A stretch of 17,438 nt of DNA from Kofleriaceae bacterium (lineage in GTDB: Bacteria; Myxococcota_A; Polyangia; Haliangiales; Haliangiaceae). The notes under the pieces were generated by a model. The model was not told the origin of the DNA. It ran no database searches and worked only from the letters and a program-made list of their open reading frames with translations. A program made the position numbers and the translations under genes. How positions within the stretch are numbered: the stretch's first letter is position 1; each line of letters begins with the position of its first letter. Location: NCBI GenBank assembly GCA_019912685.1, contig JAIOII010000364.1, forward strand, positions 1 through 17,438, in the 5' to 3' direction. Positions 9,540 to 10,356 of this stretch are shown in pieces.

Positions 9540-9611
9540 TGGTTGCAGCGGAGGGAGTCGAACCCACCGTGGCGGGGATATGAGCCCCGCGCCCTCCCGG
9601 AGGTCGCTGCG
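9540..9611 (-). tRNA. initiator-like tRNA-Met(CAU), compact (69 nt + CCA)
   Basis: C1-A72 mismatch at the acceptor end; three G-C pairs closing the anticodon stem (GCGGGG/CCCCGC); loop CTCATAT; 3' end GCAACCA (like E. coli tRNA-fMet, from memory); D-arm reduced to CCTC-CGG-GAGG; T-arm GGTGGG-TTCGACT-CCCTCC. Confidence 0.55.
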
Positions 9612-9622
9612 ATGAAAACGCG

Positions 9623-9698
9623 TGGCACGGCGCCAGGGGATCGAACCCTGCTGGTACGGGTTTGGAGGCCGTTGCCTTCACCAGAAGGCGAGCACCGT
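9623..9698 (-). tRNA. tRNA-Trp(CCA)-like, CCA encoded
   Basis: Acceptor ACGGTGC/GCGCCGT (one G-U), discriminator G; anticodon loop CTCCAAA (identical to the E. coli Trp loop, from memory); T-arm CAGGG-TTCGATC-CCCTG. Confidence 0.6.
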
Positions 9699-9717
9699 AT
9701 GAACGAGAAACGTGTCG

Positions 9718-9790
9718 TGCCTTCGGCGGGATTCGAACCCGCACGTGACGGTGTTTGAGACCGCTGACTCTGCCGTTGGTCGACGAAGGC
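9718..9790 (-). tRNA. tRNA-like gene, anticodon CAA (Leu-type anticodon on a short type-I body)
   Basis: Acceptor GCCTTCG/CGAAGGC perfect; D-arm GACC-AACGGCAGAG-TC (paralog of 9458..9535); anticodon stem GCGGT/ACCGT with loop CTCAAAC; T-arm GCGGG-TTCGAAT-CCCGC. Confidence 0.5.
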
Positions 9791-9817
9791 ATGGCGTGGA
9801 CGATCTCCACGCGACAG

Positions 9818-9890
9818 TCTGAGTGACTGGAATCGCACCAGCGTCCTCGCGGTCCCCGACCGCGCGCTCTCACTCCTGAGCTACACCCAG
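9818..9890 (-). tRNA. tRNA-Pro(GGG)-like with T-loop UGCGAUU
   Basis: Acceptor CTGGGTG/CACTCAG (one G-U); canonical D-arm GCTC-AGGAGTGA-GAGC; anticodon stem CGCGG/CCGCG with loop TCGGGGA (C33, G37); T-arm GCTGG-TGCGATT-CCAGT. Confidence 0.6.
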
Positions 9891-9902
9891 ATGGTCACGA
9901 AC

Positions 9903-9980
9903 TGGTACCGCCGGTCGGGTTCGAACCGACACTGCCTGCTTTCTGAGAACAGTGACTCCTACCAGTTGGTCTACGGCGGC
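9903..9980 (-). tRNA. tRNA-like gene, anticodon CAG (Leu-type anticodon on a short type-I body), CCA encoded
   Basis: Near-identical paralog of 9458..9535. Compensatory changes in the anticodon stem (T-G becomes T-A) and a single change G34 to C34; acceptor GCCGCCG/CGGCGGT. Confidence 0.55.
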
Positions 9981-9992
9981 ATGAAACGTTGG

Positions 9993-10066
9993 AGTGATCG
10001 ATGGGACTCGCACCCACTAAGACGAGGTTCACGGCCTCGCGCCTCGACTGCTTCGGCTTCGACCAC
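9993..10066 (-). tRNA. tRNA-His(GUG)-like
   Basis: Anticodon stem CGAGG/CCTCG with loop CCGTGAA (C33); T-arm GTGGG-TGCGAGT-CCCAT. The acceptor can be drawn as GTGGTCG/CGATCAC, or alternatively with an extra 5' G pairing a C73 discriminator as in bacterial His tRNAs. Confidence 0.5.
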
Positions 10067-10068
10067 GG

Positions 10069-10139
10069 TCCACCCGGAAGGATTTGCACCTCCATCGCCC
10101 GGTAATCGGCCGAGCAGTCTGCTGTTGACGTACGGGTGG
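10069..10139 (-). tRNA. tRNA-like gene, loop CCGAUUA (GAU, Ile-type?), T-loop UGCAAAU
   Basis: Acceptor CCACCCG/CGGGTGG perfect; D-loop AACAGCA; anticodon stem GCTCGG/CCGGGC; position 37 is a pyrimidine, so the anticodon assignment is uncertain. Confidence 0.45.
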
Positions 10140-10153
10140 GAAAGAAAACGGAG

Positions 10154-10279
10154 AGCAGATGGCTGGAGTCGAACCAGCGGCCTACGGCGTATGAGGCGAT
10201 AACCATCCATCTACGGCCCGATGACGGGCGAGAGGCGAAAGACGGGTTTTACGTCGCTCTACCACTGAGCTACATCTGC
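10154..10279 (-). ncRNA. 126-nt tRNA-like RNA: canonical acceptor, D-arm and T-arm, a CAU anticodon-like hairpin, and a roughly 50-nt internal insertion (partial duplication)
   Basis: 5' GCAGATG-TA-GCTC-AGTGGTA-GAGC (textbook acceptor + D-arm) pairs perfectly with 3' CATCTGC after T-arm GCTGG-TTCGACT-CCAGC. In between lie the hairpins GACG-TAAAACC-CGTC and GCCCG-TCAT-CGGGC, then an internal copy of the acceptor strand (GTAGATG), then TATCGC-CTCATAC-GCCGTA. Confidence 0.4.
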
Positions 10280-10287
10280 ACGAGTCG

Positions 10288-10356
10288 TTGCAGCGGAGAG
10301 GATCGAACTCTCTTCGTCACGGTTATGGGCCGCGCGCCCTCCCAGAGGTCGCTGCA
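10288..10356 (-). tRNA. compact tRNA-Met(CAU)-like with C33
   Basis: Paralog of 9540..9611: acceptor TGCAGCG/CGCTGCA perfect; mini D-arm CCTC-TGG-GAGG; anticodon stem CGCGG/CCGTG with loop CCCATAA; T-arm GAGAG-TTCGATC-CTCTC. Confidence 0.5.

Follow-up and report, generated by a model that had tools for sequence, protein, structure and literature searches.

Compact-core tRNA(CAU) genes, probably of initiator and elongator type, in an accessory tRNA array of a Kofleriaceae bacterium

A tRNA array unit has been defined as at least 20 tRNA genes at a density of at least 2 per kb in one orientation (PMC4758250). L-arrays are accessory elements that spread horizontally; an HNH homing endonuclease is conserved in them, an RNA ligase is co-regulated with them, and the L-array of Anabaena is induced under translational stress (PMC8421152); mycobacterial arrays co-localise with an HNH gene (PMC9569102) and have been discussed as anti-defence devices (PMC12803027). 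Here we describe an array of the L-array type at positions 6485..13380 (minus strand) of a 17,438-nt stretch of contig JAIOII010000364.1 (GenBank assembly GCA_019912685.1) from a Kofleriaceae bacterium, a stretch called the window hereafter, and two of its genes, c1 and c2, which encode tRNAs with a CAU anticodon and a much reduced D-arm. The array comprises at least 30 tRNA genes in 6.9 kb, has an HNH gene as neighbour and shows the patchy spread of an accessory element. As in published arrays, more than 2 tRNA genes per kb lie on one strand, most or all amino acids are served, and an HNH gene and an RNA ligase gene are present (PMC4758250; PMC8421152; PMC9569102). It differs from them in its host, a member of the Myxococcota, in an embedded gene for Ro60/Rsr, in a ligase of the DraRnl rather than the RtcB type and in the many structurally deviant tRNAs (compact D-arms, C33 in 20%). 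In the searchable literature, an incomplete corpus, no description of compact-core Met/initiator tRNAs or of Rsr-containing Myxococcota arrays was found. The explanation that we favour, and regard as probable, is that c1 and c2 are functional compact-core tRNA(CAU) genes, one of initiator type and one of elongator type, within an accessory backup array; charging, formylation, the role on the ribosome, co-transcription and the backup role are what we infer from comparison of sequences.

Two groups of described tRNAs are relevant to these genes. In mitochondrial (mt) tRNA-Ser(UCN) and in tRNA-Pyl, one nucleotide links the acceptor and D stems, the D-loop is small, the anticodon stem is lengthened and the variable region has 3 nt; mt-tRNA-Ser(UCN) keeps G18-G19 and T-Psi-C, and the long stem of M. 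alvus tRNA-Pyl contains an unpaired base (PMC7609411). With regard to methionine tRNAs, the CAU anticodon is sufficient for methionyl-tRNA synthetase (MetRS), formylation depends mainly on an unpaired C1-A72, with A73, G2-C71, C3-G70 and G4-C69 as minor determinants, and initiators have R11:Y24 (PMC9976931). Three consecutive G:C pairs in the anticodon stem direct selection for the P site (PMC3017606, PMC6393288).

The gene c1 (9540..9611, minus strand) is 72 nt long including an encoded CCA. From its 5' end it consists of an acceptor stem CGCAGCG/CGCUGCA (9611-9605/9550-9544) with the mismatch C1xA72, A8 (9604), a D-stem CCUC/GAGG (9603-9600/9596-9593) closing the loop CGG (9599-9597), a linker GCG (9592-9590), an anticodon stem CGGGG/CCCCG (9589-9585/9577-9573; G29-31:C39-41) with the loop CUCAUAU and CAU at 9582-9580, a nominal variable loop CCACG, a T-arm (9567-9551) with the stem GUGGG/CCCUC and the loop UUCGACU, A73 (9543) and CCA (9542-9540). 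The gene c2 (10288..10356, minus strand) is 69 nt long up to the discriminator, CCA not being encoded, and consists of an acceptor stem UGCAGCG/CGCUGCA (10356-10350/10295-10289; U1:A72), a single A, a D-stem CCUC/GAGG (10348-10345/10341-10338) closing the loop UGG, the linker GCG, an anticodon stem CGCGG/CCGUG with the loop CCCAUAA (10329-10323; C33, CAU at 10327-10325), ACGAA, a T-arm (10312-10296) with the stem GAGAG/CUCUC and the loop UUCGAUC, and A73 (10288). The two genes are 77% identical (16 differences in 69 nt); just 2 of the differences fall within the first 26 nt. Both have the 7-bp acceptor stem, the 5-bp anticodon stem with 7-nt loop and the 5-bp T-stem with UUCRA loop of a tRNA. 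A canonical D-arm is absent from both: neither the U8+N9 linker nor a D-loop of 7-11 nt with A14/R15/G18G19/A21 nor a variable loop of 4-5 nt was found, and the D-region is 15 nt long compared with 18-21 nt in other tRNAs of the array. ARAGORN recognised a tRNA-Met in c1, placing the anticodon at position 30 where about 34 would be usual, and did not call c2 in the window. With RNAfold, each folded alone into the proposed cloverleaf, c2 with an extended anticodon helix and with z = -2.2 against shuffled sequences. No coding signature was seen in the open reading frames overlapping c1 and c2. The features that a sequence-only reading of the window had listed were all recovered at the positions it gave, namely C1-A72, GGG/CCC at the bottom of the anticodon stem, the end GCAACCA and a 4-bp D-stem with a 3-nt loop in c1, on the minus strand, and U1-A72, C33 and a weaker G-C stack in c2.

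Relatives were collected by a protein search with Rsr, one genome being taken per species, which gave 48 loci (L001-L048), nearly all from metagenome-assembled genomes (MAGs) of Myxococcota (Kofleriaceae, Haliangiales). The closest locus is L001, whose Rsr is 96% identical at the amino-acid level. Most loci contained one tRNA-Met called by ARAGORN with its anticodon at position 30-32, and 28 compact tRNA(CAU) sequences from related loci were aligned for the analysis of covariation. When the cloverleaf was imposed on these sequences, 98.1% of cells were in standard pairs, compared with 36-59% when partners were slid. Changes on both sides were observed at 13 of 21 pairs; the acceptor, anticodon and T helices all covary, as do all four pairs of the D-stem (CCUC/GAGG, GUGC/GCAC, AUGC/GCAU, CCUG/CAGG). 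A family covariance model, R1, was built from the alignment and searched over 665 kb. It scored c1 at 80.7 bits and c2 at 82.4 bits (E about 1e-20) and gave 32 matches of at least 72 bits, all other tRNAs scoring at most 50 bits. Invariant in the family are CAU, the 7-nt anticodon loop, A37, A73, G2:C71, C3:G70 and the GG of the D-loop. Identity to the L001 orthologues is 97% for c1 and 91% for c2, neighbouring tRNAs spanning 81-100%, and the L001 orthologue of c2 (3641-3710) was called tRNA-Met by ARAGORN. A megablast search of the array against phage and plasmid collections gave no match and thus no close relative with annotation. Taken from the family model and the covariation in 28 homologues, c1 and c2 are to be regarded as conserved structured genes, neither chance folds nor pseudogenes, and as the genuine tRNA(CAU) paralogues with a minimal D-arm that had been proposed.

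In the family as a whole, the D-region measures 15-17 nt and consists of a 1-nt linker, a 4-bp stem and a loop of 3-5 nt in which GG are the sole invariant residues. The two nucleotides preceding the anticodon stem can be paired with positions 2-3 of the variable loop (columns 24-43 and 23-44); these pairs are formed in 25/28 and 26/28 sequences, respectively, with four pair types each, and a third extra pair is formed in 17/28. Since the bulk of the 5-nt 'variable loop' is thus paired, the anticodon helix gains 2-3 bp beyond a bulge, and by these alignment columns it is a predicted helix of 7-8 bp with one bulged nucleotide, leaving a true variable region of 1-2 nt. The features of the mt-tRNA-Ser(UCN)/tRNA-Pyl class were all found, a likeness of structural class and not of homology: the family has the linker, the small D-loop, the long anticodon stem and the very short variable region of mammalian 'type I' mt-tRNA-Ser(UCN) and of tRNA-Pyl, it keeps G18-G19 and the T-loop sequence like the former, and its long anticodon stem is broken by one unpaired nucleotide on the 3' side like that of M. 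alvus tRNA-Pyl. It differs from both in its CAU anticodon with Met or initiator identity, in being encoded by bacterial and phage genes in a multi-gene array, in a D-loop that is smaller still (3 nt in c1 and c2), in an extension of 2-3 bp instead of 1 bp, and in that no dedicated synthetase is encoded in the neighbourhood of c1 and c2. The earlier comparison with a mitochondrial D-arm was apt; the closest match, however, rests on further features besides the D-arm. Structurally, the extra base pairs would stand in for stacking layers lost from the D-loop core, while GG would still dock on the UUCGA T-loop and the distance from the anticodon to the elbow would be kept roughly normal.

The question of identity was approached with E. 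coli tRNA-fMet, the sequence of which was verified in 5,426 genomes, as the initiator reference. Initiator hallmarks present in c1 are C1xA72, A73, G2:C71, C3:G70, the encoded CCA and the stem CGGGG/CCCCG with its three G:C pairs at 29:41, 30:40 and 31:39. All of these, together with the loop CUCAUA-, are shared with the reference (metZWV/metY), and the 3' end GCAACCA is identical. Differences from tRNA-fMet are the D-region of 15 nt (20 nt in E. coli), the missing U8/A14/R15 core, the extended anticodon helix, Y11:R24 (A11:U24 in E. coli), A4:U69 (G4:C69), U38 (A38) and a descent from an elongator-type scaffold. The initiator character that had been ascribed to c1 thus holds for its acceptor end and anticodon stem, while the D-stem and pair 4:69 are of elongator type. 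In c2, the paired U1:A72 bears out the earlier description as elongator-like; CAU and A73 are those of an elongator tRNA-Met, and C29:G41 is followed by two G:C pairs.

The distribution of these features among the relatives is the most telling evidence for the putative identities. The family rule at 1:72 is C1:G72. A72 was restricted to six genomes with an Rsr at least 83% identical to that of the window, i.e. the window itself, L001, L002, L039, L005 and L003; two copies occur only in the window and L001, and U1:A72 only in their duplicated pair. The three-G:C stack was seen in the Myxococcota set only in c1 of the window, in c1 of L001 and in the more distant L032, which has an independent compact copy CGCGGCG...CGCCGCU (C1xU72) with GGG/CCC. 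All other stem positions of the family are 97-99% paired. As the mismatch has persisted and was mended only in the duplicate, while the other stem positions remain paired, selection on 1:72 can be argued. On this pattern c1 would be a hybrid, with the acceptor end and anticodon stem of an initiator and the D-stem of an elongator, and G72A together with a flip of C29:G41 to G29:C41 would recently have converted an elongator-type scaffold into it. The single C1:G72 copy of most relatives would be an elongator-type tRNA-Met. The ancestor of the window's clade would have acquired C1xA72, the main formylation determinant, by a change of G72 to A, and in the lineage of the window and L001 the gene would have been duplicated afterwards. 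One copy, c1, would have kept the mismatch and become initiator-type when a flip of 29:41 to G:C completed the three-G:C stack, CCA being encoded as well; in the other, c2, a change of C1 to U would have restored the pair and given the elongator type. MetRS would recognise both by the CAU anticodon and A73 and charge them.

A different view would be that the initiator hallmarks of c1 are incidental and that c1 and c2 are redundant elongator tRNA-Met isodecoders. It is in keeping with the Y11:R24 and A4:U69 that c1 retains, and with the single copies of L002, L003, L005 and L039, in which C1xA72 is present and the third G:C pair is missing; no other Met tRNA occurs in these arrays. We nevertheless consider it unlikely, as a mismatch at this pair has lasted in six genomes and was repaired only in a duplicate, as the three-G:C stack together with a paired 1:72 was never seen among the 88 members of the wider class described below, and as the 1:72 mismatch is the classical discriminator between initiators and elongators (PMC9976931).

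For c2, a tRNA-Ile2 identity also has to be weighed, with C34 converted to lysidine by TilS, charging by IleRS and AUA as the codon read. An unmodified CAU tRNA-Ile2 is not separable from tRNA-Met by sequence, and lysidine switches the identity (PMC9976931). The features U1:A72, A37-A38 and C29:G41 of c2 would suit such a tRNA, and at L008 a tandem paralogue with the identical acceptor UGCAGCG/CGCUGCA-A-CCA has the Ile anticodon GAU, beside copies with CAU and UAC. An AUA reader, however, would be out of character in an array of C34/G34 anticodons in DNA of about 69% G+C, and without c2 the window array would have no elongator-type tRNA-Met. In most arrays, moreover, a single-copy CAU gene provides the sole Met tRNA, and the c2 lineage goes back to this gene. 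An Ile2 identity thus appears quite improbable to us, and the elongator-type tRNA-Met is preferred.

Compact CAU tRNAs were also searched for by pattern scans of IMG/VR and metagenome contigs, with a spacer of 18-22 and a structural parser as filter; an initial viral pattern (spacer 17-24) also caught normal-length initiator tRNAs and was narrowed for this reason. Defined as CAU tRNAs beginning with C/UGCAG and having a D-region of 13-17 nt, the class comprised 88 distinct sequences from three collections. All 88 have GG in the mini D-loop, and most have the 2-bp helix extension, either bulged or contiguous. The 1:72 pair is mismatched (CxA, CxC or CxU) in 45/88 and paired in 43/88. Three G:C pairs were found in 20/45 mismatched and 0/43 paired sequences (Fisher p = 1.3e-7), and R11:Y24 in 28/45 and 3/43, respectively. 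Of 10 compact CAU tRNAs in nine test loci, 9 were missed by the Rfam tRNA model RF00005 at its gathering threshold, which did find a CAU tRNA of normal length in the same array; the class is probably under-annotated. Two viral contigs resemble the window array. L172 (135 kb) carries, in the gene order of the window array, Thr-CGU, Asn, Glu-CUC, a compact Met, Pro, Ile, His, HNH (58% identity), Asp and Ala, without Rsr, and also a normal-length CAU tRNA with a U1xU72 mismatch; L143 (88 kb) carries Rsr (50%), HNH (61%) and 28 tRNAs, one of them a compact CAU tRNA. Normal-length initiator-type tRNAs with the acceptor CGCAGGG...CCCUGCAACCA are common on viral contigs. The sequence-only reading had called an island-borne initiator tRNA unusual, with a putative influence on translation initiation under stress. 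That such a tRNA is unusual was overstated, since the syntenic array is shared with viral contigs and initiator-type tRNAs with a 1:72 mismatch are common there; the unusual part is the compact core, not the mobile initiator tRNA. In L008, at 10292-10520, three tandem paralogues on the compact scaffold have the anticodons CAU, GAU and UAC (Met, Ile, Val); it appears that the gene was duplicated and the anticodon then switched.

Several observations weigh against functional genes of the two proposed types. RF00005 missed c1 and c2 both at gathering (29 bits) and at E<=10. The single-sequence folding energy of c1 is no better than that of shuffled sequences (z = -0.75), its T-stem pair 50:64 (window 9564/9554) is UxU, the sole unpaired cell at this pair among the 28 homologues and A:U in the L001 orthologue, and its helix extension has a CxA mismatch at one extra pair. 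Two minor initiator features are absent from c1, the D-stem having Y11:R24 (C:G) and 4:69 being A:U, not G4:C69. In c2, C33 replaces the near-universal U33, which is present in its L001 orthologue, and CCA is not encoded. The 88 class members collapse to 37 clusters at 80% identity, five of them purely paired, and the coupling of the stack with 1:72 is much weaker when this relatedness is considered. Finally, no sigma-70-like promoter was found in the array, in a sigma-70 scan that is uninformative for a myxobacterium. The miss by RF00005 was set aside as evidence against the RNAs once R1 and the covariation supported the fold. The earlier reading had made its folds depend on covariance models; the generic model indeed gave no match, but because the family model, with the R1 scores given above, and the covariation strongly support the fold, the failure is a property of the model and not of the RNA. 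Failure of the generic model, the omission of c2 by ARAGORN, C33 in c2 and the two stem mismatches in c1 would also be expected if one or both were decaying pseudogenes in a degenerating array. That this is so we regard as extremely improbable: compensatory substitutions occur in all helices across the 28 homologues, the divergence from L001 is within the range of other array tRNAs, C33 is found throughout the lineage, and the compact architecture recurs in the 88 distinct sequences of three collections.

U33 is near-universal in tRNAs. Among 660 tRNAs called by ARAGORN in the arrays of the window and L001-L048, 133 (20%) have C33, in an isoacceptor-specific manner (Pro-GGG 18/18, Gly-GCC 22/27, Ala-GGC 7/8, Val-GAC 9/13, Leu-GAG 12/20, Ile-GAU 11/20, Met-CAU 5/29). 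The tRNAs of the window that have it are Glu-CUC, Thr-CGU, Thr-GGU, Gly-GCC, Pro-GGG, one Pro-CGG, Ala-GGC, His, Ile and c2. The C33 that had been pointed out in c2 is present but no peculiarity of this gene, and because C33 is widespread in these arrays, we read it as a trait of the lineage and not as damage. Short D-regions are likewise not confined to c1 and c2. D-regions of 16 nt or less in these arrays cluster in Met-CAU (20) and Arg-ACG (8), and the tRNA-Arg(ACG) of the window (10372..10442, minus strand) has a D-region of 16 nt, its anticodon at position 31 and a mismatch at 4:69. Two gaps of the array, 6646..6725 and 8529..8613 (minus strand), contain tRNA-like sequence with the T-arm GGUGGUUCGAUUCCACC and weak matches to the tRNA-Sec model of 18.6 and 29.4 bits; ARAGORN called no tRNA in them and nothing reached an Rfam threshold, and they may be further deviant tRNAs.

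The array of the window is made up of 26 tRNAs called by ARAGORN, three found by Rfam only (12686-12756; 10069-10139, Ile-GAU; 9993-10066, His-GUG; all minus strand) and c2. It covers all 20 amino acids with anticodons that are mostly C34/G34; the G+C content of the window is 69% overall (ARAGORN) and 62-76% locally. A gene order (Tyr, Gln,) Phe, Lys, Gly, Thr, Rsr, Asn, Glu, (Arg,) Met ... Leu, HNH, Ser is common to the relatives, in which the array around Rsr varies from 2 to 28 tRNAs and the flanking genes are not conserved. By G+C content at third codon positions and Pfam, the only convincing protein genes within the array are those for Rsr, the HNH endonuclease and the RNA ligase. The Ro60 orthologue Rsr (10896..12491, minus strand; TROVE and vWA, PF05731 and PF25045) is encoded upstream of c2 and c1; against NCBIfam NF041674 it scored 612.7 bits, under the cutoff of 900 bits. 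The HNH endonuclease gene (8835..9449, minus strand; Pfam HNH/HNH_5) lies directly downstream of the block of c1 and Leu-GAG and accompanies Rsr in about 35 of the 48 loci, including array-poor loci with only two tRNAs. At 7495..8646 (minus strand; PF21189 and PF09414) lies the gene for the ATP-dependent RNA ligase, which is of the DraRnl (DRB0094) type and scored 143.5 bits against TIGR02306 (cutoff 151). Its true start is probably downstream of 8619, because the open reading frame overlaps tRNA-Ser; among the relatives it was found only in L001, L002, L004 and, partially, L005. Directly downstream of the array, at 3913..about 6450 (minus strand), lies a gene for a major-vault-protein-like protein of about 850-900 amino acids with shoulder and repeat domains. 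Its listed start overlaps two tRNAs, and the true start is for this reason placed further downstream. Homologues flank the arrays of L002 (89%) and L005 (76%), and one of 47% identity flanks a 24-tRNA array on the viral contig L186; like the ligase gene, the vault-like gene is restricted to the closest relatives of the window. With PADLOC, HNH showed only generic similarity (weakly PtuB/Cas9-HNH-like), and the other three proteins, Rsr, the ligase and the vault-like protein, gave no match. A terminator-like hairpin with a U-run was seen at 8738..8755 (minus strand), downstream of HNH and upstream of tRNA-Ser, in a scan with a yield near chance; if genuine, it would mark the 3' end of a transcription unit that begins with the upstream tRNAs and takes in Rsr, c2, c1 and HNH.

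Further RNA-like elements surround the compact genes. Between c2 and tRNA-Ile, a tRNA-like RNA of 127 nt (10154..10280, minus strand) has a 7-bp acceptor GCAGAUG/CAUCUGC, for which L002, L039 and L003 show the covarying GCAGGUG/CACCUGC; its D-arm (UAGCUCAGUGGUAGAGC) is canonical, a T-arm (GCUGGUUCGACUCCAGC) is present, and an insert of about 60 nt replaces the anticodon arm. It is missing from L001 and L005, its CAU is not conserved, and it is a candidate for a Y-RNA-like partner of Rsr in the window's clade. A third CAU tRNA at 10214..10154 (Rfam 25.9 bits) was considered and rejected, since the segment is the 3' part of this element and CAU is not kept in L002, L039 and L003. A second tRNA-like RNA of 102-104 nt was found in L024 (9929-10032), L025 (9743-9846), L012 (10294-10394), L009 (5678-5778) and about 16 more loci, but not in the window's clade. 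It shares the acceptor of the compact tRNA-Met (CGCAGUG/CACUGCG-A-CC) and the mini D-arm, and has an 'anticodon' stem of 11-12 bp (loop UUAAC or CUAAG), a variable arm of 7 bp and a normal T-arm; it usually begins at the last base of the compact tRNA-Met and occurs even where the array is almost gone. Between tRNA-Glu(CUC) and tRNA-Arg(ACG), a 175-nt spacer (10443..10617, minus strand) is kept at full length in L001 (94%), L002, L039 and L005, and the 75-95 nt at its 5' end are kept in about 27 loci, some of them array-poor, where they invariably lie a short way downstream of Rsr. This spacer had no Rfam match and is a candidate conserved RNA or leader.

The vicinity of Rsr raises the alternative that c1 and c2 are tRNA-shaped ligands, decoys or substrates of Ro60/Rsr surveillance (Y-RNA-like partners or nuclease baits) that are not used by the ribosome. 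The family always lies within about 1.3 kb downstream of Rsr in the Rsr loci, and the Y-like RNA of about 103 nt follows the compact tRNA-Met immediately, on the same scaffold, in about 20 loci. Bacterial Y RNAs mimic tRNAs and Ro60/Y RNA directs polynucleotide phosphorylase (PNPase) (PMC4201824), an enzyme that limits a D-arm-less tRNA in E. coli (PMC11551756). The tRNA-like modules of YrlA Y RNAs, which are bound by Rsr, adjoin rsr (PMC4201824), as c1 and c2 do. In contrast to YrlA, c1 and c2 have free acceptor ends and a 7-nt CAU loop and lack a Ro60-binding stem made from the 5' and 3' ends, and the 127-nt and 103-nt RNAs are better, separate Y-RNA candidates in these loci. A YrlA-type Y RNA including c2, for which a hairpin CUGCA-loop-UGCAG is also possible, was rejected because c2 stands alone in L001 and its neighbour is independent; the best match of the YrlA model RF02553 in this region, 20.4 bits (E = 1.3; gathering 69 bits), spans 10226..10344, i.e. 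c2 and the unrelated neighbour. CAU, the 7-nt loop, A37, A73 and G2:C71/C3:G70 are invariant in the family, while the Y-like RNAs have lost the 7-nt anticodon loop; 1:72, the three G:C pairs and R11:Y24 co-vary as translational roles would predict, and the family is also present in the viral array without Rsr (L172). A ligand role in place of translation thus seems to us decidedly improbable, and we retain the reading of c1 and c2 as functional tRNAs.

The one-strand array of at least 30 tRNAs is probably co-transcribed together with Ro60/Rsr, the HNH nuclease and the RNA ligase, and the array, shared with viral contigs, would most plausibly supply divergent backup tRNAs when host tRNAs are damaged or depleted. 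To our knowledge, no cognate nuclease has been described for this host. For phage tRNAs, an escape from anticodon nucleases by loop mutations has been proposed, and initiator tRNA is a known target of VapC (PMC10264068). The array tRNAs likewise deviate in the anticodon loop, an RNA ligase is co-encoded, and close relatives of the array are also found on viral contigs; they differ from the phage tRNAs in that the deviation is also architectural, affecting the core of the L-shape, and in that the copy of the window is chromosomal in MAGs. A broader scenario, which we put forward as tentative and rather doubtful, is that the compact-core tRNAs are a mobile lineage derived from phage initiator tRNAs (CGCAG..., 1:72 mismatch) and diversified in the Myxococcota, the array being a backup translation set that is structurally orthogonal, complete in itself and equipped for its own quality control and repair. 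The lineage would then have diversified into elongator Met tRNAs, locally into Ile and Val tRNAs, and into Ro60-associated Y-like RNAs. The altered core would be a poor substrate for host tRNA nucleases yet exposed to surveillance of the PNPase type, and this would explain why the array has its own PNPase-modulating Ro60/Rsr and RNA ligase.

Each part of this locus belongs to a kind already described (tRNA, L-array, Ro60), and tRNA-Pyl and mt-tRNA-Ser(UCN) offer precedents for the architecture. The known exceptions to the canonical tRNA core, tRNA-Sec, tRNA-Pyl and allo-tRNAs, serve special decoding tasks. Here an apparently ordinary Met or initiator identity is found on a core as reduced as that of mitochondrial tRNA-Ser(UCN), which has been preserved, with compensatory changes, throughout a bacterial family and is also present on phage contigs and in metagenomes. 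Should the genes be active, bacterial MetRS, Fmt, EF-Tu, IF2/IF3 and the ribosome would naturally accept a compact core, the tRNAs would be ready-made candidates for orthogonal initiator and elongator pairs, and a whole class of tRNAs would be under-annotated by the standard covariance model. The duplication in the window and L001 would amount to an experiment of nature, identities being interconverted by one or two substitutions (G72A or C1U, and the 29:41 flip), and the linkage to Ro60/Rsr, RNA ligase and HNH may offer a testable handle on the action of bacterial Ro60 on tRNA-like RNAs.

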